64,000 nucleotides of DNA from a virus (lineage: Duplodnaviria; Caudoviricetes), in IMG/VR virus record IMGVR_UViG_3300021256_000056, positions 131,096 through 195,095 of that record. One strand, given 5' to 3'. Of the stretch, positions 13,910 to 62,931 are shown piece by piece (positions within the stretch are counted from its first letter, which is position 1; each line of letters starts with the position of its first letter). The position numbers were made by a program, and so were the translations under genes. The notes beneath the pieces are model-generated. The model worked only from the letters and a program-made list of their open reading frames with translations. It did not search any database and was not told the origin of the DNA.

Positions 13910-13918
13910 ATAAATAGG
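13910..13918 (-). promoter_or_regulatory. Putative late promoter variant CCTATTTAT
   Basis: ATAAATAGG upstream of ATG 13885. Confidence 0.6.
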
Positions 13919-21694: not shown

Positions 21695-21703
21695 ATAAAT
21701 AGC
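21695..21703 (-). promoter_or_regulatory. Putative late promoter variant GCTATTTAT
   Basis: ATAAATAGC upstream of sheath ATG. Confidence 0.65.
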
Positions 21704-27141: not shown

Positions 27142-27148
27142 TTGTTTA

Positions 27149-32375: not shown

Positions 32376-34523
32376 TTAGAACTCAGTATTATTCATTCTA
32401 TCCAAAATAGAATTAAAGCTTTGTTTATGCTCTTGTAGTTTTTGTTGCTGCGATGTAAATAAACCGTTCAAATGAGTATTCACACTATAAATTGCGTTAT
32501 TTGAGATACACTCAATTGCACATTTTTCCGCATAATTATCTTGTTCAGGCAAATCAAAAACTTCAGCAATTAATCCTAAATTACCATTTTTATCTTTTTG
32601 AATCGGCGCAACATATTCCTTTTTATTGAGATTAAAATAATTTTTTCTGAAATTAAGACTTTCCCCATAAGCAAGTGGCTTTTCCTCCAGTTTAGACGCC
32701 GCACTACCATGAACCCTAACGAATACATAATAAGGTTTTTCACTTGGTTCATAGCAAAGATTACATTGATAACAGTTAATTTTCTTGTCCTCTGATGCTT
32801 CATAAGGTTTTCCGTCAAAACCTCTCCCACAGGGGCATTTATAATAAAAATTACCCGTCGGTACCTTTTTATCCCCTTCAACGGCATATAGCGGCTGGAG
32901 ATTAGGTGTTAAAACCTCACTTTTGCTGTTTATATTTATTGTATTATTTGGTCCATTATAAGTATCATCAAACGCATCGTAAATACTTTCAGGGAGCGCA
33001 ATAAAATACCTCGCAATTGCACCTGCAATAGTATTGTCTTGGGCATTACGTCCAATATAATCCCTAGAGGCATTTATTATAATGTTTTTAATTTTGCTAT
33101 AATTTAACAGCCTACAAGTATAAGCCGATGCTTGTATTCCCAGAAGTTTAATATCCCCACAAATTTCATCAATTTTATCAAGTAAAGCCTGATTTATAAA
33201 ATCACCGTTTTCATTAAGACGAATGTTTTTTATACCCCTATTTGCGGTTTTCACAATCTCTAATTCTTCATTAGAGTACTCACTAAATTTTAATTTTCTC
33301 AGTACGTCAATGGAAGGGACACCCTGTAAGGTCACTTTTTTATCTTGAATGTTCTTTCTTGCAGCTATGAGGTTTTTTCTTAAAACTGAATAATCAACAA
33401 TGTATGTTCTAAGAAGATTTTCAATCAAAACCATCATATTAGGGTCAGCCAAACCAGCTTCCCACATTAAATTTCTTTGTGAGTTTGCTTGGAATACATT
33501 GTTATGTGATTTCTCCTCTGCTCTGGCATAACATGCATTTTTAACCAAACACTCAGCCCACGCTGGGCATCTTTGGGCGCTTGTGAAGTTTATTATTAAT
33601 GTAGAATTGGGCAATTTTGCATTTCCTGCGGAGAAAGTAGAAGCGGGTAATGATACCGCCAACCCATACTTAGACATCATGTATTTATCTAAAATAGAGG
33701 TTAGCATTTTTTGTTTGAGTTCCGAATCCGTTAAAATTTTCTTATCCTTAGTATTCACTAAAACATAGTAAGCGCCATCTACTTTAATATATAATGGAGA
33801 ATCAAAGTCTACTGCTATTTTCGTCTTTTTAGAATTATCTGGGACATATGGTAAAGTAACAACATCATCCATAAATTCGCTCGGAACAACACCAATTGGC
33901 ACATATTTAAATGCCCCCATTGCATATGCACGATATTTTTTGAACTCTGGGCTATCGTATGAAACATTAAAATTGAAATCGTCAAAATTCAAATCATCAC
34001 CATCAGCTTTAATACCATAAGTTTTACTATTGTTTCTTTTAGTGATAGAAGGATTATAGGTCCATTCTAACCCCTGAGAATCGATAAAATCTTGCATTTT
34101 CATCACAAAGTCAACTTCTTCCTTTGGGAGGTCTCTGGACATTCGACTATAATTTATAGTATAACCAGCGCCAGCAGCACTAGATTTTTGTATATATTGC
34201 CTCAATATTTGAATAGCCTTTTTAACATCATCCATTACGGATTGATTAATTTCTTGGCCACTACCTGCTTTGTTTTTAATTCTTATGGCTTGTATTGGGT
34301 TATAGTCGACATTTACTCCAATATTCCTGCCAGCAGCACGTATCTTCCTGGAAATATCATTATCAGTGTTAAGTACTCCGCCTTTTCCGTTGTCTCCATA
34401 CAAATGTGCCATAATATCGCTTTTGGCATTAACAACAGCGGCGTCATTATTAACATCAACTCCTTCAAAGAGCCCACTAATGATTTCTTGAAGTATTGTT
34501 TTATGTATTTTTTCTTGTTTCAT
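32376..34523 (-). CDS. Late protein with GP88-like Cys-rich (possible Fe-S) domain
   Basis: GNAKLP...CPAWAECLVKNACYA...IRLNENGDF...AYT...KCPC...CYQCNLCY...VH. Confidence 0.6.
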   Translation of the reverse strand: MKQEKIHKTILQEIISGLFEGVDVNNDAAVVNAKSDIMAHLYGDNGKGGVLNTDNDISRKIRAAGRNIGVNVDYNPIQAIRIKNKAGSGQEINQSVMDDVKKAIQILRQYIQKSSAAGAGYTINYSRMSRDLPKEEVDFVMKMQDFIDSQGLEWTYNPSITKRNNSKTYGIKADGDDLNFDDFNFNVSYDSPEFKKYRAYAMGAFKYVPIGVVPSEFMDDVVTLPYVPDNSKKTKIAVDFDSPLYIKVDGAYYVLVNTKDKKILTDSELKQKMLTSILDKYMMSKYGLAVSLPASTFSAGNAKLPNSTLIINFTSAQRCPAWAECLVKNACYARAEEKSHNNVFQANSQRNLMWEAGLADPNMMVLIENLLRTYIVDYSVLRKNLIAARKNIQDKKVTLQGVPSIDVLRKLKFSEYSNEELEIVKTANRGIKNIRLNENGDFINQALLDKIDEICGDIKLLGIQASAYTCRLLNYSKIKNIIINASRDYIGRNAQDNTIAGAIARYFIALPESIYDAFDDTYNGPNNTININSKSEVLTPNLQPLYAVEGDKKVPTGNFYYKCPCGRGFDGKPYEASEDKKINCYQCNLCYEPSEKPYYVFVRVHGSAASKLEEKPLAYGESLNFRKNYFNLNKKEYVAPIQKDKNGNLGLIAEVFDLPEQDNYAEKCAIECISNNAIYSVNTHLNGLFTSQQQKLQEHKQSFNSILDRMNNTEF

Positions 34524-34541: not shown

Positions 34542-34550
34542 ATAAATAGT
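34542..34550 (-). promoter_or_regulatory. Putative late promoter ACTATTTAT
   Basis: ATAAATAGT upstream of ATG 34523. Confidence 0.75.
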
Positions 34551-35629: not shown

Positions 35630-35638
35630 ACTATTTAT
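35630..35638 (+). promoter_or_regulatory. Putative late promoter ACTATTTAT
   Basis: Exact motif upstream of ATG 35660, divergent from the 35568 copy. Confidence 0.75.
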
Positions 35639-36342: not shown

Positions 36343-36771
36343 ATGGATAAACAAAGCAAACTAGAAAAGATTGGTAAGAAATATAGAGATAACTCTCTTA
36401 TTGTTCAAGGTCAGCAAGTAAACGCTCTTGCAAGGAACGATTATAATAAAAACGAGCCTTACAACGACAGACATGTTGATGCACATTGGGATGAGAATAA
36501 CACAGACCCCGACGGAAAGCCACTCGGAAAAGGAACTAATAATGGCGGTCATAAGTTCTCCATTCCAAATCAGGCTCTTTCATCTGATATTATAGTACCT
36601 CAATTTGACACTGAGAATGGTGGAGGTAGCCATGATATATTTGGAAGAAGGGAATTTGAAAGCGGCAGAAATTATCTCCAAAATATTAGTCTTTATAATA
36701 AAAACCGTCAATATGGAAAGCACAGTGTCGATATTGACGATATGATTGACGGACAATTTCTTGTTAAGTAA
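36343..36771 (+). CDS. Hypothetical protein
   Basis: ORF in late operon. Confidence 0.7.
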   Translation: MDKQSKLEKIGKKYRDNSLIVQGQQVNALARNDYNKNEPYNDRHVDAHWDENNTDPDGKPLGKGTNNGGHKFSIPNQALSSDIIVPQFDTENGGGSHDIFGRREFESGRNYLQNISLYNKNRQYGKHSVDIDDMIDGQFLVK

Positions 36772-37622
36772 TGAATCTTTTCGGGGAAATACTTAAAGAA
36801 TGCAATCTACTTCTCGAAAAAAAGAACGAAGTAACAGAGGATAAAATTAAAGATGCGATAGAGAACTGTAAGATTGTATCAATAATGTATAACGACGGAA
36901 CGCCCAATGGCGGGAAAAGCTGGCGTTATATATATCCTGTTGTTTTTGGTGAACTTAAAAAGACTGGCAACAAAGCCATTCGTGCATATCAGGACGGAGG
37001 GTCAACAAGTAAAATCAAGGAAAAAGGAACAAACCACGGAATGAAACAAGGATGGAAACTCTTCAGACTTGATAGGATTGTTGCCTGGTACAACCAAGAA
37101 AACACAGAAACTGATTTAAGTCACGTATTTACGCCCCAAAATCTTGCCGATTTAAATACCACAGGAGATAAATCATTTAGTAAAATTTATTACCATTCCC
37201 CCGCAATAAAGGTTGAATATGGCATAGATTCTAATCCAGTAACAAAGACAGATATTAATGGCGGTGAACCCGTTAAACCCGAAGCACAAAAGGAACCTAT
37301 TGTTAAATATACATTTAATCCAGACTGGAAAAATCAATATAGCGAAAAAACAAATGGGGTTTCTCTTGATAATTCAGGAAATATTAATTATAATTCAAAT
37401 AAAGAGGATAAACTCACTGCTCCACAAACGAAACCAATTCTTAAGACCGATTTAGTGCCGCAAAACGAGATACCTCAAAATGAAGAGCCCAAAAACAAAC
37501 AAATGACCGCTGATGAAACACCTGTTTCAAAGGATGAGGTTAATGGCGAAGAAGATAATACTTTAACCAAAACCTTTAACGATTATTTGGATAGATGGGA
37601 AAAAGTTGAAACACAAGATTAA
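36771..37622 (+). CDS. WYL-domain protein
   Basis: IKDAIEN.KIVSIMY...RYIYPVVFG...IRAYQ...GWKLFRLDRI. Confidence 0.75.
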   Translation: MNLFGEILKECNLLLEKKNEVTEDKIKDAIENCKIVSIMYNDGTPNGGKSWRYIYPVVFGELKKTGNKAIRAYQDGGSTSKIKEKGTNHGMKQGWKLFRLDRIVAWYNQENTETDLSHVFTPQNLADLNTTGDKSFSKIYYHSPAIKVEYGIDSNPVTKTDINGGEPVKPEAQKEPIVKYTFNPDWKNQYSEKTNGVSLDNSGNINYNSNKEDKLTAPQTKPILKTDLVPQNEIPQNEEPKNKQMTADETPVSKDEVNGEEDNTLTKTFNDYLDRWEKVETQD

Positions 37623-38267: not shown

Positions 38268-38297
38268 AAATCCGCGACCTAAATGGTTGCGGTTTTT
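38268..38297 (+). terminator. Intrinsic terminator
   Basis: ccgcgacc-taaat-ggttgcgg followed by T run. Confidence 0.65.
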
Positions 38298-38342
38298 ATT
38301 TACTTTTTATCTAAGGCGCTTTATTTTTTTAGAAAAAAAAGC

Positions 38343-39170
38343 ATGCCAATAGAAGAAAAGATTCAACAAAGCATAGATGCTCTTAAAATATACGAAGAAG
38401 CTCTTCGGGAAATAAATGACATTAGTAAACTCTTCAAAGAAAGGCTTGGTGAGAATTTAAGAGAATATCAAAAAGAATTTATTTTCAATATTATAACTTC
38501 TGCATCTGGTTGTTTTGTGAAGAAATGTAGACAAGCTGGTATAAGCACGGCTTATGCCGCTCATGTATATAATAAAATCAAAAAAAACACTGACGGCCAC
38601 TATAAAGTTTTAATTTGTTGCAGAGACTTAAGCCTTTCTAAAGAAAATTACAATAAAATAGCAGGGTTTTGTTCAAATCTATCAGAGATAAAATTAATGC
38701 AAAAATGTGTGACTTTCTGTAGCGAGGGCATGCTAATTAATAAATTATGTGGTAGTCGATTCGACGAGGTTTATTTAGATGAAGCCTCCTTTCTTAAAGA
38801 GTTTTCTCATGTTTGGGATGATGTTATGGCCTCAATATGTCAGACCGACGGCAAAGTAATTATTGTTTCAACACCCAAAAATGAAGATGAGAACGAAGAT
38901 GATTTCGTTAAAATGTACAACCGAGTTATTGAGCACCCTGGAAGTTGGAAATATCAACAAATTGATTGGTATGAAGTCCCATGTTTTAACAAACATCTTA
39001 TTTGGAAAAAAATTTTAGTTGAACCGACAATAGATGAAGAAGGTAATGTGAAATATGACAAAGAACGATGGGTAAAACTAATGAAAGAAGGTTGGATGCC
39101 AACGTCACCTAAATACGAAAAGTTAAAAACACTGATAGGTGAAAACATAAAAAATGAATTATTAAATTAA
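38343..39170 (+). CDS. Terminase-like ATPase domain only (TerL paralogue lacking nuclease)
   Basis: LREYQ, KCRQAGIST, YLDEASF, IIVSTP; EPTIDEEGNVKYD..W...GWMP.SP shared with 61054..62931; likely start ATG 38343. Confidence 0.85.
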   Translation: MPIEEKIQQSIDALKIYEEALREINDISKLFKERLGENLREYQKEFIFNIITSASGCFVKKCRQAGISTAYAAHVYNKIKKNTDGHYKVLICCRDLSLSKENYNKIAGFCSNLSEIKLMQKCVTFCSEGMLINKLCGSRFDEVYLDEASFLKEFSHVWDDVMASICQTDGKVIIVSTPKNEDENEDDFVKMYNRVIEHPGSWKYQQIDWYEVPCFNKHLIWKKILVEPTIDEEGNVKYDKERWVKLMKEGWMPTSPKYEKLKTLIGENIKNELLN

Positions 39171-39182
39171 AAAACATAAAAT

Positions 39183-40424
39183 ATGACAGAAAATAAGAAA
39201 ATTCGGGTACTTGTTGCCCCTGATGACCACGGTGGAGTAGCTTACTGGAGAATGGAACAGCCCCACCTTAAACTTGACCAACTTTTTGGTAATGAATTTG
39301 ATGTTATTATTAACCACAATGTTAATTGGAGAGACTTAGATTACATAAAACAGTTTGACATATTGGTTTACCACAAGGGGCTATTCCCCGATTTTGAAGG
39401 ATTTAGGGCCGCCCTTAAGTTTTGCAATGAGAACAACATTACAACAGTAATGGATATTGACGATTATTGGGACCTCGGACAGTGGCACCCACAAACGCTT
39501 CACAATAAGGCAAGCGGAGGTATCGAAAAAACCACTGGCAATCTCCGTTTAACGGACTATATCACAACAACAACGAACCTTTTTGCAAAAGATATTGCAA
39601 AATACAATCCTAATGTTAAGGTTTTCCCTAACGCAGTAAATAAAGATGAGCCACAGTGGGCACCAGATTTCTCAAGGACAGATAAACTTCGTATTGGGTA
39701 TATAATGGGAAGCACGCACGAGCGCGATATGGCCCAAGTTTATGGACTAACCAACAGACTATACGGCGAAGGACTTCTGTCAAAGGTCCAAATAGTGCTA
39801 TGTGGATATGATTTAAGGGGTACAATGACCGTCATCGGTCCAGATAAGCAAGTACAGGGACAAAGGCCAATCCGCCCCGAAGAATCCGTTTGGTATAAAT
39901 ACGAAAAAATAGTCACAGACGACTATAAGATATGCAGCCCAGCTTACAAGGAGCATCTTCAGAGATTTATTCCAGAACTACAATATCCTGGTGTTGAAAA
40001 TGAAACGTATCGCCGAGAATGGACAAAGAATCTATCTTCATTCGGTACACACTATAACAATATTGATATTCTTTTGGTACCCCTTGATGAAAATGAGTTT
40101 AATTACCACAAATCCGAACTCAAACTAGCTGAAGCAGGAACCAAACATAAGGGTGTGATATGTTCAAATTTCGGACCATATACTATCGGTACCAAATCCC
40201 TACTAAAAAAAGGCGGTGAAATTGACCCCGAAGGAAATTGTATTTTAATCAACCCGCAAAGGGCACATAAAGAATGGCTAAAAGCCATCAAGACGCTTGT
40301 AAATCACCCTGAATATGTAACAATGCTTCAAGATAATCTAGCAAAACATATTGAAGAAAATTATAATTTAGAGAAATGGACAGCAGAGCGTGCTAATTGG
40401 TACAAATCAATAGTAAAACGTTAA
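39183..40424 (+). CDS. Glycosyltransferase (GT-B fold)
   Basis: GVAYWR..QP, MDIDDYW, VFPNAV, RIGY.GS.H..D, DILLVPL..NEFN..KSELKL.EA. Confidence 0.82.
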   Translation: MTENKKIRVLVAPDDHGGVAYWRMEQPHLKLDQLFGNEFDVIINHNVNWRDLDYIKQFDILVYHKGLFPDFEGFRAALKFCNENNITTVMDIDDYWDLGQWHPQTLHNKASGGIEKTTGNLRLTDYITTTTNLFAKDIAKYNPNVKVFPNAVNKDEPQWAPDFSRTDKLRIGYIMGSTHERDMAQVYGLTNRLYGEGLLSKVQIVLCGYDLRGTMTVIGPDKQVQGQRPIRPEESVWYKYEKIVTDDYKICSPAYKEHLQRFIPELQYPGVENETYRREWTKNLSSFGTHYNNIDILLVPLDENEFNYHKSELKLAEAGTKHKGVICSNFGPYTIGTKSLLKKGGEIDPEGNCILINPQRAHKEWLKAIKTLVNHPEYVTMLQDNLAKHIEENYNLEKWTAERANWYKSIVKR

Positions 40425-40980: not shown

Positions 40981-42156
40981 ATGAGTAAATTAACTAAAGT
41001 AGGCTACGAATTGGAGAGCGTCCACATTGTTCAGGCTCCTATTTCAGATATTGAACACAGGTGCGAATGCGACCCAATGATTGATTTCTATGGCAGGAAG
41101 GTTTATCCTGTAATAGTTTCTCCTATGGGTTCCGTAACGGATGAAAAAAATTATAAGGTATGGCTTGAACATGGATTCTTATGCGTTGTTCCAAGGACAG
41201 TTCAAAAGACTGAAAATAACCCCAATGGAATAAGTTTTGAGGAACGTCTTAAAATATCACAAGAAACTTTCGTATCCTTTTCGCTCAACGAGGCGAGATA
41301 TCTAACAGAACACCTCCTTATTAATAGGGATAAGCGTCATTTTATTTGCATAGACATTGCGCATGGTACAATGAAATGCCTTTATGATGTGTGTGCAAAT
41401 CTAAAAAAGTTGCTCGGCGATAAGATTGTTATCATGACAGGTAACGTGGCAAATCCCGATGCCTATCCTTTCTATGCTGCAAATGAAATAGATTATATGA
41501 GGGCGACAATCGGTACAGGAAGTCGCTGTACAACATCTTGCAACGTAGGAATACATTATCCCACTGCTACTCTTATAGACGAACTCCGTATGAATAAGGA
41601 GACATGGGAAGAAAACCACAGTGAAGGCACCAAAATTATCGTCGATGGCGGAATACAAAACTTTGATGATATTCAAAAGTGTATCGCCCTCGGCGCATGG
41701 GCTGTAATGAGTGGTAGCATTTTTGCCAAAGCTCAGGAGGCGTGCGAACCGATTGTATTTCTACAGCCCGACAATCTCAATATGGCTGATGCTATTCCCG
41801 CTGATGAGTATTTTGAGAAACTCGGTGAATTAAAAGAACGAAGCGCCAACTTTGAAACCGACGAAAATGAGTATTGGATGGCATATAAGAAACTTAGCCA
41901 GCGTAAACCATACCGCCTCTATTACGGAATGAGCACGAAGCTTGCACAGAAGAAAACAGGCGGCAAGGGTACCACTACTGCAGAAGGCATCGCAAAGCCA
42001 ATACCCGTAGAATATCCTATCGCTAAGTGGGCAGATAATATGGCTTCGTATATGAGGAGCTGTATGTCATATACGGGTTGCAGGACAATTGAAGAAATGC
42101 GCAATGAAACAGAATTAATTATTAATCTGTCAGGAGACCGCTCATTTAGAAAATAA
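40981..42156 (+). CDS. GMP reductase / IMP dehydrogenase family
   Basis: SPM, CIDIAHG, GNVA, IGTGSRCTT, DGGI, VMSGS, YYGMS, AEG, RS.MSY.G. Confidence 0.88.
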   Translation: MSKLTKVGYELESVHIVQAPISDIEHRCECDPMIDFYGRKVYPVIVSPMGSVTDEKNYKVWLEHGFLCVVPRTVQKTENNPNGISFEERLKISQETFVSFSLNEARYLTEHLLINRDKRHFICIDIAHGTMKCLYDVCANLKKLLGDKIVIMTGNVANPDAYPFYAANEIDYMRATIGTGSRCTTSCNVGIHYPTATLIDELRMNKETWEENHSEGTKIIVDGGIQNFDDIQKCIALGAWAVMSGSIFAKAQEACEPIVFLQPDNLNMADAIPADEYFEKLGELKERSANFETDENEYWMAYKKLSQRKPYRLYYGMSTKLAQKKTGGKGTTTAEGIAKPIPVEYPIAKWADNMASYMRSCMSYTGCRTIEEMRNETELIINLSGDRSFRK

Positions 42157-45527: not shown

Positions 45528-46295
45528 ATGAACGAATTAACAGTAATTATTCCAATAGATAAGTTCAACGAGGAAGTTTCCACGTTGCTTACATCAGCAA
45601 TTTCAAGTGTCGAGGAAGGCACCAAGCTCATTCTTGTAGGTCCCCACGACACACTTGAAGCCACCAAATCACTAGATGTTGTAAAGAACAAGAAACATCT
45701 AAAATTTCTAGACAACGAGAACATTAACTTGCCAACCCAAATAAATTTGGCAGTAAACGAGGTTAAAACCAAGTATTTCAGCGTCCTCGAATACGATGAT
45801 ACGTTCACACCTAATTGGTTTAAAAATGTTGCTGAACGCATAGAGTCAGAGCCAGGCGTTTTTGCCTATCTCCCAATTTATGAAGTTTTCACTTATGGTG
45901 ATAATACAAATGCTATTGGGTATGTCAACGAACCAGTCTGGGCAAGCTCATTCTCAGAAAAAATTGGCTATTTTGACACCGAAAGCCTCGAGAACTATGT
46001 TGATATCGGGTGCAGTGGCGCCCTTTTTGATAAAGATACATTTATTGAGCTTGGCGGCCTGAAGGAAAGCATGAAAGTGTCTTTCTGGTATGAGTTCATG
46101 CTCAGGGCCGACTATAAATCTAAGAAAATTTACGTTGTACCCAAGGTGGGTTACAGACACTGTCTGGGCAGGCCAGGCTCATTGCTTGAAATCTACAAGC
46201 AAACACTTACATCCGAAGAGGCCACATGGTGGATTGCGCTCGCAAAACAAGAGCACTTCTTCAAGAAGGATAGAAATAAAACATATAAAAAATAA
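45528..46295 (+). CDS. Glycosyltransferase family 2 (GT-A)
   Basis: LTVIIP, KYFSVLEYDD, FIELGGL, EFMLR. Confidence 0.75.
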   Translation: MNELTVIIPIDKFNEEVSTLLTSAISSVEEGTKLILVGPHDTLEATKSLDVVKNKKHLKFLDNENINLPTQINLAVNEVKTKYFSVLEYDDTFTPNWFKNVAERIESEPGVFAYLPIYEVFTYGDNTNAIGYVNEPVWASSFSEKIGYFDTESLENYVDIGCSGALFDKDTFIELGGLKESMKVSFWYEFMLRADYKSKKIYVVPKVGYRHCLGRPGSLLEIYKQTLTSEEATWWIALAKQEHFFKKDRNKTYKK

Positions 46296-54981: not shown

Positions 54982-57060
54982 TTATTCGTCGTCAAAAACT
55001 GACACATCCTCAGTTATCTGTCCCGTGCCCTCATCATCTTTGAAAATCTCGTCAAATTTAACACTCAACTCTTCCAATGTGGCTATAGACTTTTTGAGCT
55101 GCTCGCTTATTGATGCACTTTTACCGACATAATCAACCACTTCGGGTTCTCCGCTATTACGCTTCGCAACTTCATTCAACATGTCAAAATATTGGGCCGC
55201 AATTGTCTTTGGCTGTGAATTTTTGCTTTCGCGAATTCCTGCAAATCGAGACAATGTTTCTTGAAGAACATTACCAGAATCAACGGCAGGAGCATTACTC
55301 ATTGGGGCTGCCGCAGATTCGCCGCCAATTGAAGAGGATGTATCTTCCCCAGGTGCACCAAGAGAGTCCATATGAAGAGAACTTCCTACACCTTCTCCAC
55401 CCCCAAAGCCCCCACCGCCTGGGCCACCAGGGCCACCCTGTTGCTGCTGCTGCCCCATTTGTGGCTTATTCATTGCGTCGGGGTCACCATAAATTCTATC
55501 AACAGGGTCAAAGATACCAGTTTTCTTGATAACACTAGCGGTGTTAGCCAACTCAGCGGCCATAGCCGATTCGAGTCGTATCTCATTAAACATATCTTTT
55601 ATGTCACTATCATTCATCTTCATAATTTCCTTAAGAATTCTGTGTAGCGACATCAATGGAATACCATTTGCCAATGGCTGTGCAGCCGCTAAGGCAACTT
55701 GCACTCTTTTAGATGTATCCTCAAGCTCAAGTGTTTCAATCTGCGCAGAGGGATTGTTCATTCCTAAAGTAAAGTTTGTGATATCATCTTCAAATCCAAG
55801 TAAATAAAGATGTATCATTGCAATCTTATTCAACTCAAGAAGAAGGTACTGTTGTATTTTATTTACCATTCTGCAGAACCGAATATCTAGGAGTGAAAGA
55901 TTTTGGCCCCTGCCCTGTGGCTCCTGGAAGTTAAGATATGTTTTAGGCACACGCAACGCAGCGAAAATCTTGTTTTCCATGTGCTGTATATCTTCCATAC
56001 TGTCGGTGTTATGTGCAGCTTGAAGGGTTTCAATAGGATTAGGGGCATCCTCTCTACGTACAGGGATAAAATAATCCGTAGAAACATCCATGAAATTCTT
56101 CCTTAGGTCAACTTGTCCAGTGAGAGGGTCAATTATTGGAGTTCTCTTGAAATTATTAGCGACATCCTGTATGAAGGCAGGCACGTCCGCATCGTCAATT
56201 GCTCCAACATAAATTTTAAACACACGTCGCTCAATACTCTTATCCAAACGATAAATAAGCATTGCATCCTCCATCATTGAAAGCATTCTCCATGCCCTAC
56301 GGGCCTTATGTAAAATACTTGTTCCATATGGAAGGAAGAAAGAATCGGCAAGCATTCTAAAATGTGCTACCTGCCAATTATAGAATGGTGTATTATTGTT
56401 ATGCCCAACCCACACGAATTTTGTTTCGTCGTTAGTTAAAACGTTAGTTTGAGTTGTAACAGCAACAGATGCTCCTGCGGCTCCGCCATAACCATTTTCC
56501 AGTCGGTCCATCTCGTATGGGCTAATCCTTCTCCAACCAAGTATTCCGTGCTCCTTATTGAGGTTGAGGAACATGTAGTCATTACCATATTTACACATAC
56601 CACGGCAAACCATAGGTAAATCTACATTAACGTGGAGTCTATTATAGAACAAATCTTCGAGAACAGCCTTAATTCGTGGCGATTTGGAATAAACTTTAAG
56701 CATTTTGCCATCAGACGCAATATTACATGCTTCCTCAGCATATATATCAAGTGCAGCGCCAATCTCAGGCATAGTTTCCATCAAATCAGCATCTCTAAGC
56801 ATGAGCTTTACTGCGGTGTATCCCGCAAGACTCTCCATTGCATTATCGGCACCAACCTTCAACCACTGATATGAAAGCAACTTTTGCTGCCTCAATTCAG
56901 CAAGCTTAGCCTCATAATCAGCCTTATTATTTGTTGAATATAATACTCTATTTGGTGTTACAAAACCACTAGTGTTATCTGGGGTGAAAATTTCAGGCAC
57001 ACTTGCACCGTTAACAACCCTTCCTAGGTTTTGAAAAACCGTTTTTCCATTACTAGCCAT
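54982..57060 (-). CDS. Portal protein (T4 gp20-like)
   Basis: PEIGAALDIYAEE, PYGTSILHKARR.W..L.MMEDAMLIYR...ERRVF.I.VG, DYFIPVR, ALRVPK.YL, DIRF. Confidence 0.93.
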   Translation of the reverse strand: MASNGKTVFQNLGRVVNGASVPEIFTPDNTSGFVTPNRVLYSTNNKADYEAKLAELRQQKLLSYQWLKVGADNAMESLAGYTAVKLMLRDADLMETMPEIGAALDIYAEEACNIASDGKMLKVYSKSPRIKAVLEDLFYNRLHVNVDLPMVCRGMCKYGNDYMFLNLNKEHGILGWRRISPYEMDRLENGYGGAAGASVAVTTQTNVLTNDETKFVWVGHNNNTPFYNWQVAHFRMLADSFFLPYGTSILHKARRAWRMLSMMEDAMLIYRLDKSIERRVFKIYVGAIDDADVPAFIQDVANNFKRTPIIDPLTGQVDLRKNFMDVSTDYFIPVRREDAPNPIETLQAAHNTDSMEDIQHMENKIFAALRVPKTYLNFQEPQGRGQNLSLLDIRFCRMVNKIQQYLLLELNKIAMIHLYLLGFEDDITNFTLGMNNPSAQIETLELEDTSKRVQVALAAAQPLANGIPLMSLHRILKEIMKMNDSDIKDMFNEIRLESAMAAELANTASVIKKTGIFDPVDRIYGDPDAMNKPQMGQQQQQGGPGGPGGGGFGGGEGVGSSLHMDSLGAPGEDTSSSIGGESAAAPMSNAPAVDSGNVLQETLSRFAGIRESKNSQPKTIAAQYFDMLNEVAKRNSGEPEVVDYVGKSASISEQLKKSIATLEELSVKFDEIFKDDEGTGQITEDVSVFDDE

Positions 57061-57081: not shown

Positions 57082-57090
57082 ATAAATAGT
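57082..57090 (-). promoter_or_regulatory. Putative late promoter ACTATTTAT
   Basis: ATAAATAGT upstream of portal ATG. Confidence 0.8.
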
Positions 57091-61023: not shown

Positions 61024-61045
61024 AACTATTTATTAATAAATAGTT
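61024..61045. promoter_or_regulatory. 22-bp perfect palindrome made of two inverted late-promoter motifs
   Basis: AACTATTTATTAATAAATAGTT, 8 nt before terL ATG. Confidence 0.8.
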
Positions 61046-61053
61046 AACGGAAT

Positions 61054-62931
61054 ATGATTGACTACGATTTATTAAGGGAGGAATATGTTAAATGTATTAG
61101 TGACACCAGTCGCATATACATGATTGAACATTACCTCAAGACATATGACGCCACCCAGAAAAGAGAAGTGCCATTCATGTTATTCCCAAGACAAAAAGAC
61201 CTTTGCCAAACGTTGGGTAATGCCAGTAACGTTGTTACCACGAAAGCCCGTCAGATGGGTATCACCACAACCGCAGGCGCATTCATAGCATGTGAAATGG
61301 GGCTTGCAGACCCCGAGTCTCCACAAACAGTTCTAATTATTGGTAACACAATAGACCTGGCGCAACAGATGCTAACCAAAATAAGGGATTTCCTACTACA
61401 ATTTCCCTGTTGGTTGTGGGGCGATGAATTTATCAAACCAGACACAACAATGGACAGCGTCCCAACAAAAAAACAGATATTCAATATTTGCAACACCAAG
61501 GAGTTAGTCCTAAAGAACGGATGTCGAGTAGTAGCGCGTTCCTCAGGCCCTGATGCGTCTCGAGGTGTCGGTGGTGTTACATGGCTTATTTTTGACGAAG
61601 CGGCCTTCATTGAGAACGGACGCGATGTCTATACATCTGCACTACCTACCGTATCCACTGGTGGACACGTGATTATGATATCCACCCCCAATGGTAAGGA
61701 CCAGCTATATTACGAAACCTGCCGCCTAGCAAAACTTAAAGGAACCAAAGATTGGAACGAGTTTGAGCTCGTAGAAATGAAATGGTATCAAGATTTGAGA
61801 TATAATAAATTTCTTGAGTGGACAAAGAAAAACACCGAAACGGGAGAGGTTGAAGTATATAAAGAGCCCACAATTGATAATGAGGGTAACATTAAGTACG
61901 ACCAGGCCCACTGGGACGAAATGCTTAAGGACGGCTGGATGCCACGTTCACCTTGGTATCTTAAAATGTGTCACCAGTTCAATAATGATAGTATGAAAAT
62001 TGCACAGGAACTTGACGTTTCGTTCTTGGGCTCTGCCGCAAACGTTGTTGAGCCAGAGGCGATTCAAATGCAACTCGACCTGAACGTCAGGGAACCACTA
62101 TACGTCGACCCGCTTTGTGAAGATACGTGGATTTGGAAAGAGGCTATTGAAGGCCACAGATATTTAATGTCCATAGACTGCTCCCGTGGTGACGCTGCGG
62201 ATAGAACCGCAATTGAAATTCTTGATATGGATGGCGTCGACGATGACGGTACCCCATGCTTGGAACAGGTTCTCGAATATCACGGCAAAAAACTAGGCGA
62301 TACGATTGGTGAGATGGCATTCCATTATGGTAGGATGTATGGGGAGGCATACGCGGTTGTTGATTGCGTCGGCGGCACAGGTGACGCTTGCGTGCTTATG
62401 ATGCAGCGCCTTGGTTACAAGAACCTATTCTATGATGATGTAAATCTTAAAACATACACCATACAAAGAGAGGCATCTTCAATACCAGTTTCTACCGAAG
62501 GCAGGGCGCCTGGCTTCCACACAAATGCCGTTCGCGACCAAATGTTAACTGGATTTGCCGATATGGTTAGAACTAACGCTATCAAAATTCGTTCAAAACG
62601 CGTTATCGCGGAACTTGACACTTGGATTTATAAGGGTCCCTCCGCACGTATCGACCACCAGGATGGGTGTCATGACGATACTCTAACTTGTCTCGCGATG
62701 GGTACGTTTGTCATGAAATTCAGCATGAATAAACTTATTGCGGCAAAGAACAGAGATAAGGCCCTACTCAAATCTTGGGTTGCGGGGGTTAATGTTGAGG
62801 AAAGGCCTGTATCCACTAAGGCTGGAAGCATCTCAGTGGCCCCAAAACGCCACGCAATGCCCATATATTCAAACAACATGGTATCAAACAGCAACCCCAT
62901 CTTTGATGCATATAAATGGCTAATCAAATAA
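61054..62931 (+). CDS. terL: Terminase large subunit
   Basis: FPRQ, KARQMGITT, IFDEAAF, ISTPNG, QELDVSF, SIDCSRGD..D, HDD nuclease motifs. Confidence 0.93.
   Translation: MIDYDLLREEYVKCISDTSRIYMIEHYLKTYDATQKREVPFMLFPRQKDLCQTLGNASNVVTTKARQMGITTTAGAFIACEMGLADPESPQTVLIIGNTIDLAQQMLTKIRDFLLQFPCWLWGDEFIKPDTTMDSVPTKKQIFNICNTKELVLKNGCRVVARSSGPDASRGVGGVTWLIFDEAAFIENGRDVYTSALPTVSTGGHVIMISTPNGKDQLYYETCRLAKLKGTKDWNEFELVEMKWYQDLRYNKFLEWTKKNTETGEVEVYKEPTIDNEGNIKYDQAHWDEMLKDGWMPRSPWYLKMCHQFNNDSMKIAQELDVSFLGSAANVVEPEAIQMQLDLNVREPLYVDPLCEDTWIWKEAIEGHRYLMSIDCSRGDAADRTAIEILDMDGVDDDGTPCLEQVLEYHGKKLGDTIGEMAFHYGRMYGEAYAVVDCVGGTGDACVLMMQRLGYKNLFYDDVNLKTYTIQREASSIPVSTEGRAPGFHTNAVRDQMLTGFADMVRTNAIKIRSKRVIAELDTWIYKGPSARIDHQDGCHDDTLTCLAMGTFVMKFSMNKLIAAKNRDKALLKSWVAGVNVEERPVSTKAGSISVAPKRHAMPIYSNNMVSNSNPIFDAYKWLIK

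Follow-up and report, generated by a model that had tools for sequence, protein, structure and literature searches.

A predicted stand-alone TerL-type ATPase domain in a jumbo myophage keeps its nucleotide pocket and lid and lacks a conserved arginine

The window analyzed here is a DNA stretch of 64,000 nt (positions 131,096 to 195,095 of the IMG/VR virus record IMGVR_UViG_3300021256_000056; Duplodnaviria, Caudoviricetes). The record (195 kb) comes from a jumbo myophage and is a fragment, about 53% complete; the window also encodes a tail sheath, a tape-measure protein, a helicase and PolB. Our subject is a short gene whose product (the short protein) resembles the ATPase domain of the large terminase subunit (TerL) encoded in the same window. 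The genes involved are listed below.

38343-39170 (+): the short gene, a 275-aa stand-alone TerL-type ATPase domain, stop codon included (BLASTP, AlphaFold2 model and structural match)
39183-40424 (+): glycosyltransferase-like gene, 12 nt past the stop of the short gene (phrog_7162 glycosyltransferase, 7.5e-30)
54982-57060 (-): portal protein gene, candidate shared docking partner (phrog_213 portal, 1.5e-49; late motif at 57082-57089)
61054-62931 (+): TerL, the phage's T4-type large terminase in full length (625 aa) and the parent type for the short copy (phrog_2, 1.3e-34; late motif at 61026-61033)

The reading frame of the short gene is open for 295 codons (38283-39170, +). We place the start at 38343, giving a product of 275 aa, because all homologues begin at this methionine and because the 20 codons ahead of it (60 nt) overlap a terminator hairpin at 38272-38292. 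This is the start that had been used in a preliminary description of the DNA, made from the sequence alone.

Residues 11-261 of the short protein align with residues 2-305 of the window TerL by BLASTP (78 bits, E-value 1e-20, 25% identity), and the protein matches PHROG_2 'terminase large subunit' at 8e-14 in PHROGs. The short gene and TerL are the only two matches within the 195-kb record, which contains no second copy or full-length version of the short gene elsewhere. Matches to domain models are faint: Pfam PF03237 (Terminase_6N) gives 13.8 bits, under its curated gathering score of 22, just 4 of the 30 members of the family described below reach Terminase_6N at an E-value <0.01, and NCBIfam gives no matches for the short protein. 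In the ESM Atlas, a partial Terminase_6N signal is seen in many clusters of viral 'hypothetical proteins' of 260-300 aa.

The fold is predicted with confidence. An AlphaFold2 model built from a 75-sequence alignment (predicted local distance difference test 94.1, predicted template modeling score 0.84) has 2o0h, 3cpe and 4znk as its top Foldseek matches. Residues 12-222 of the model align with residues 106-339 of T4 gp17 (2o0h) with a Z-score of 20.4 over 202 residues (VIA), and P74-26 TerL (4znl) is matched with a Z-score of 18.4 (VIA). The ESM Atlas model of the short protein (residues 18-275) has a template modeling score of 0.80 against a TerL cluster of 629 aa. By these models, the product of the short gene is a whole ATPase domain of the TerL type (Rossmann core and lid) and the nuclease domain is absent, in line with the preliminary description, which had called it a nuclease-less paralogue of the phage's own TerL ATPase.

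The end of the protein was also correctly placed there, at the ATPase/nuclease junction where TerL reads QELDVSF: the C-terminal NELLN of the short protein aligns with TerL 318-322, inside this segment. The window TerL matches the nuclease domains of T4 gp17 and RB49 in sequence comparison, with matches starting at about 345-361. No RNase H-fold nuclease domain is fused to the ATPase of the short family, and no family member is longer than 306 aa. The extra helical N-terminus that had been described was not found; the helix at residues 3-35 has aligned counterparts in the N-terminus of TerL itself and in gp17 from residue 106 onward, and the surplus over TerL is only about 10 residues.

A word-indexed search returned seven relatives of 275-298 aa (31-89% identical), and a profile search over 1.84 billion representatives returned about 26-30 clusters (50% identity) of 262-306 aa that cover the whole profile. 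In the latter search the first full-length TerLs rank after the short clusters, at an E-value of about 1e-27, and no full-length form of the short family was found among the representatives. Matches to the short protein in GenBank phages are TerLs only (identity at most 26%), an IMG/VR scan with it returned TerLs and no short genes, and a metagenome scan for the short gene gave two short contigs only. A maximum-likelihood tree with 75 rows, built on the ATPase region, has a branch (100/99 support) that divides the 30 short proteins from all TerLs. The short family is old and of single origin, occurs in a lineage of jumbo myophages and derives from the TerL clade of that lineage.

Selection on the short gene was estimated against a relative with 88% nucleotide identity (L024). 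The nonsynonymous (dN) and synonymous (dS) rates are 0.066 and 0.50, giving a dN/dS of 0.13 that comes from one pair, the only close one with DNA; the DNA is identical within two other pairs (L006/L007 and L003/L004), so these are uninformative. In the informative pair, 31 residues of the short protein have changed vs 45 silent codons in its gene; for the neighboring glycosyltransferase the counts are 6 vs 41. The changes in the short protein concentrate at residues 153-174 and 20-39, and 2 fall in the lid. By these comparisons the short family is under purifying selection, and its catalytic columns are invariant despite more than one substitution per site across the family.

The preliminary description had suggested that function is retained, and the dN/dS, the uniform short length and the distinct clade agree with this. 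It had named a full-length copy in relatives or a dN/dS near 1 as marks of decay, and phylogeny as a way to look at the relatives; no relative carries such a copy, and the tree separates the short proteins from TerLs. One could still see the gene as left over from a TerL duplication and now decaying or neutral, given its 25% identity to TerL and the loss of several TerL motifs. This explanation is already contradicted by the data and is practically untenable, because the open reading frames are intact and of constant length in about 30 deeply diverged clusters that form one clade, dN/dS is low, the nucleotide pocket is near-invariant as are catalytic and lid residues in general, and both synteny and the upstream regulatory region are conserved.

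The residues by which packaging ATPases are recognized are located as follows.

38466-38471 (+): adenine-binding Y42-Q43 (Q motif), aligned with YQ of T4 gp17 and at least 90% conserved in the 30 members
38523-38549 (+): deviant Walker A, K61-x-R63-Q-x-G66-I-S-T69 (front lysine; cis-arginine R63)
38748-38750 (+): C136, at the position of a conserved TerL arginine (DAxRG, just ahead of the Walker B strand)
38778-38783 (+): Walker B D146 and catalytic E147, aligned with gp17; across the family D146 never varies and E147 has a conservation of at least 90%
38868-38876 (+): C (coupling) motif S176-T177-P178, present in the window protein

K61, R63 and G66 are invariant in the 30 family members, and the P-loop type (KxRQxG[IV][ST]T) is common to the window TerL and its clade. 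The coupling motif is looser: STPN is strict in TerLs, and short proteins have one or two Ser/Thr at this place (SS, TS or ST, then anything). The Q motif, Walker A, Walker B and STP had all been listed as retained, which is true of the window protein for all four; family-wide it does not hold for STP, which is degenerate.

The clearest loss is at the DAxRG position, where 28 of 30 full-length TerLs have Arg and 26 of 27 short proteins have Cys, Ile or Met. C136 aligns with the Arg of DAVRG in T4 gp17, and an 8-residue deletion lies ahead of this position in short proteins. In P74-26 TerL, the R139 trans finger position lies between alpha2 and beta3 (PMC5727402), and by alignment the C136 site is a position of the R139 type. 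Another basic residue, K171, stands just ahead of beta4 (alpha3-beta4), at the finger position of D6E R158 and phi29 R146; Lys or Arg is found ahead of beta4 in about 60% of both the short and the TerL families. Judged from these alignments, the nucleotide pocket (YQ, P-loop Lys/Arg/Gly, Walker B Asp-Glu) is kept, the conserved arginine is lost and the coupling motif is loosened.

Compared with the T4-type TerL ATPase domain (gp17 N360; PDB 2O0H, 2O0J, 3CPE; Terminase_6N), the short protein has the same fold including the lid, with YQ, the cis-arginine P-loop and Walker B DE aligned. It differs in being a separate gene without nuclease or late motif, with Cys for the DAxRG arginine and the 8-residue deletion, and the short family differs in having no conserved STPN and far faster evolution than TerL. 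The family is TerL-derived yet has neither the nuclease nor the conserved arginine and stays below the Pfam threshold.

Proteins of similar length also occur on the TerL side of the tree. P0028, P0029, P0045, P0061 and P0070 (262-312 aa) end just past the QELDxxF junction, and in some of them the DAxRG arginine is absent as well (P0070 reads QQMCG). Possible explanations are additional forms without nuclease, TerL genes that are split, and truncation at contig ends. Five TerLs of the same clade (P0031, P0044, P0049, P0050, P0069) have 920-1022 aa, i.e. 300-400 aa beyond normal, and we regard them as intein-bearing because a 1022-aa Atlas cluster carries LAGLIDADG_3 together with Terminase_6N.

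Constraint in the short family is strongest in the lid, which has a counterpart in TerL:

38964-39116 (+): lid region, residues 208-258, a beta-hairpin and a GWxPTSP loop, the best-conserved part of the family
61864-61953 (+): lid hairpin segment of TerL common to the short protein, with 21 of 30 residues identical to short residues 227-256

Mean pairwise identity in the ATPase core (76-207) is 0.17-0.22 in the short family vs 0.33-0.45 in the TerL set, and in the lid (208-258) it is 0.53 vs 0.40. Short residues 208-222 correspond to gp17 residues of about 325-339 in the structural alignment. In T4, the gp17 residues turned toward the portal clip are D325, E326, N338, N341 and S344, and packaging is impaired when positions 330-331 or 342-344 are mutated (PMC4493910); in the packaging ATPase ring of ascc-phi28, most inter-subunit contacts are made by the lid (PMC8216284). 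The lid and the nucleotide pocket seem to have become the working part of the short protein.

The hairpin is a clade-specific insertion common to a subset of TerLs, and the distinctive segment that the preliminary description saw in both proteins is found here, at residues 227-256. Recent gene conversion was considered as its source and rejected: identity at third codon positions is 31%, and the same codon is used at 10 of the 21 identical residues. Since third-position identity is this low, the segment has been kept at the protein level and was not recently copied.

Five syntenic relatives have the short gene at the same position. There, the genes run from a late operon (218-, 142-, 283- and 213-aa genes) through a terminator, the short gene, a glycosyltransferase-like gene (411-413 aa), a dUTPase/dCTP-deaminase-like gene and an IMPDH/GMP-reductase-like gene. 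Among the five, identity is 73-78% for the adjacent glycosyltransferase, 69-80% for the 142-aa gene, 55-70% for the 283-aa gene, 40-71% for the 213-aa gene and 33-44% for the short gene. TerL clusters of three contigs (363,917, 44,964 and 47,291 bp) are 88-92% identical to the window TerL, and the short proteins there are 31-37% identical by BLAST to that of the window; that the two genes co-occur on these three genomes is inferred from the identical bp sizes of the longest contigs. Cassette exchange is not supported as the source of this low identity, as all pairs are uniformly at 33-44% and the flanking genes are star-like at 73-78%. From these comparisons, fast vertical evolution would suffice.

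Two relatives with complete genomes, G001 (412 kb) and G002 (401 kb), with TerLs 49-52% and glycosyltransferases 43-44% identical to those of the window, do not have the short gene at this place: a 228/242-aa gene, its terminator and the glycosyltransferase directly abut. Because these two complete genomes lack it, we consider the short gene optional. A 271-aa family member is found in a differently organized phage (L038), amid NUDIX, SAM-synthetase and glycosyltransferase-type genes.

An essential heteromeric subunit of the packaging motor (e.g. a TerS substitute or a fixed 'special' ring subunit) might explain why the lid and the nucleotide pocket are conserved, and no small terminase gene was recognized beside TerL in the window. 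We find such a role very unlikely, given that the gene is missing from two complete genomes with the same 626-aa TerL architecture, evolves about 15 times faster than TerL and has no late motif. Most of what sets the family apart had been overlooked in the preliminary description, namely the arginine loss, the family-wide decay of the coupling motif, the hyper-conservation of the lid, the fast evolution elsewhere and the absence from complete relatives.

Signals around the start of the short gene bear on when it is expressed.

38272-38292 (+): intrinsic-terminator hairpin closing the upstream late operon (218-, 142-, 283- and 213-aa genes)
38295-38312 (+): conserved T-rich box (TTTATTTACTTT...) between terminator and start codon, a putative non-late promoter, kept in orthologous loci
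61026-61033 (+), 57082-57089 (-), 21695-21702 (-), 13910-13917 (-), 35631-35638 (+) and 34542-34549 (-): examples of CTATTTAT sites

Equivalent hairpins are found at the same place in L003, L005, L006, L037 and L024. The motif CTATTTAT occurs 20 times in the window vs 5.2 times expected, with sites 15-40 nt ahead of the genes for TerL, portal, sheath, tape measure and other structural proteins and of the 218-aa gene that opens the upstream operon. It resembles the T4 late TATAAATA and is probably the late promoter element of this phage. None lies ahead of the short gene, so the earlier remark that it has no late motif stands. With a terminator ahead of it, no late motif, and its place at the head of a nucleotide/sugar-metabolism unit, the short gene likely has non-late expression, and the short protein is probably made before the late proteins. 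The short gene and the downstream glycosyltransferase-like gene are probably on one transcript. A T-rich box similar to that of the short gene lies upstream of the PolB gene at 27145; a promoter class common to the two was rejected as not significant (5 matches vs 1.5 expected, equaled in 4 of 100 shuffles), and since this enrichment is not significant we take an 'early promoter' only as a suggestion.

The unit downstream raises another explanation, that the short protein is a DNA- or nucleotide-handling ATPase recruited to a module with the glycosyltransferase, dUTPase and IMPDH-like proteins (DNA modification or precursor supply) and unlinked to packaging. The short gene is indeed the first in a unit with these genes, glycosyltransferase-type genes adjoin it in L038 too, and its catalytic residues are intact. 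Yet G001 and G002 keep the glycosyltransferase without the short gene, no domain has been added to the protein, and its best-conserved part is the TerL-type lid, nothing new. We consider this quite unlikely.

The reading that we put first, if tentatively, is that the short protein is a nucleotide-dependent, optional TerL mimic that acts by binding and modulates the packaging motor. The intact pocket, the lost arginine and the lid-focused constraint lead us to predict a binding mimic unable to fire the ring. The protein would bind ATP, with slow or switch-like turnover; it cannot cut DNA, and is unlikely to drive a ring motor or fire a neighboring subunit. Its lid would dock on a surface that normally takes TerL's lid, candidate sites being the portal clip (cf. 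T4 gp17 325-344) or a neighboring TerL subunit; docking at TerL's sites seems most likely because the short protein cannot cut DNA. Once bound, the mimic would cap the packaging machine, delay it or modulate it, or do so to any other component that recognizes TerL.

Several observations weigh against the motor-modulating mimic. Early or middle expression fits poorly with late-made partners such as portal and TerL. The hairpin is more variable among close TerLs (EPTLNDKGD vs EPTIDNEGN) than within the short family, so it is the broader lid, and not just the hairpin, that carries the argument for the same partner. Fast evolution of the core is equally compatible with an arms race and with relaxed constraint, the dN/dS is that of a single pair, and a residue of the K171 type may serve as an alternative trans finger.

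The same traits can be read in terms of conflict, i.e. the short protein would be an early TerL look-alike used against host immunity (it would soak up or mis-assemble Avs1-3 or Upx) or one that poisons the motors of co-infecting relatives. The gene is optional, among the fastest evolvers of its block, probably expressed non-late, and found in a second, unrelated context among auxiliary genes (L038). The retained ATP pocket and ATPase-domain shape are what Avs2 and Avs3 read, and TerL-like proteins such as vs.8 and Ksap1/2 have been suggested as possible anti-defense factors (PMC13601566). On the other hand, published ATPase-only TerL fragments and vs.8 trigger, and do not block, Avs2/Upx (PMC13601566), no TerL-derived anti-Avs protein or inhibitor was found in the papers searched, dN/dS gives overall no positive selection, and constraint peaks in the lid and not at a variable surface. 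We rate a conflict role as possible though somewhat doubtful. The version with an Avs decoy is weakened, not favored, by published data, because isolated TerL ATPase domains and vs.8 activate Avs2/Upx (PMC13601566). A modulator of the motor and a conflict protein would have the same mechanism, and present data do not separate them, nor do they decide among the roles offered in the preliminary description (motor regulator, inhibitor of competing phages or decoy for terminase-sensing defenses).

The closest published case is T4 vs.8, an uncharacterized early-region protein homologous to the T4 terminase ATPase domain (PMC13601566). It activates EcAvs2, as isolated TerL ATPase domains activate Avs2/Upx, and the function of vs.8-type proteins was called an open question by the authors in 2026 (PMC13601566). 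The two have several traits in common: each resembles a TerL ATPase, stands alone, carries Walker A and B, is lineage-restricted, is encoded outside the late structural genes and comes from a phage that makes a full TerL besides. vs.8 has no lid, the best-conserved part of the short family; with 219 aa and Walker A at about residue 91, it has no room for one. Membership of the short family in the vs.8 family was rejected (hhalign probability 1.6%, E-value 0.031, over 20 P-loop columns only; BLASTP E-value 0.34). No other published stand-alone TerL-ATPase-like paralogue was found in the literature.

The phi29/ascc-phi28 ATPases (gp16 family) are also ASCE (additional strand, conserved glutamate) ATPases of the packaging type without an active nuclease, with a lid that makes ring contacts (PMC8216284). 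They are however the sole, essential motor and have trans-acting Lys/Arg fingers, whereas the short protein coexists with a full TerL and has lost the arginine at a finger position. Stand-alone TerL ATPase paralogues are barely described, and the short family is a distinct form with an intact pocket, a lost arginine and a hyper-conserved lid. Being large, old and sharply delimited from TerL, it is a good test case. If confirmed, a mimic of this kind bears on the regulation or sabotage of jumbo-phage packaging motors, and on why terminase-sensing immune receptors see 'non-terminase' triggers.

A more specific and rather unlikely proposal is that the short protein is a natural capping subunit: loaded with ATP and without the arginine finger, it would occupy, by means of its TerL-type lid, either the portal clip or the end of a TerL ring that is still growing, and would be made early to blind terminase-sensing receptors or to stop the motors of co-infecting relatives. 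If true, it would be the first case of interference by a TerL derivative for which the mechanism is defined.

Other genes near the short gene were noted in passing. Two proteins of the upstream late operon are also kept in G001 and G002, the conserved 283-aa protein at 36771-37622 (+), which has a faint WYL-like match, and the 142-aa protein at 36343-36771 (+), with its 69-80% identity among relatives. A 715-aa late gene at 32376-34523 (-), with a late motif upstream and weak Pfam matches to GP88 and to collagen-binding-like domains, is 32-36% identical among relatives whose neighboring genes reach 60-77%; it is another fast evolver, possibly host-interacting. Downstream, the glycosyltransferase-like gene next to the short gene and another at 45528-46295 (+) (Glyco_tranf_2) lie in one plus-strand block with the dUTPase-like and IMPDH-like genes, and the block may be a DNA- or precursor-modification module. 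The IMPDH/GMP-reductase-like gene at 40981-42156 (+) encodes 391 aa here and 507 aa with Hint/intein Pfam matches on the 273,963-bp contig of GCA_016648615.1, where it looks like an intein inserted in an auxiliary metabolic gene.

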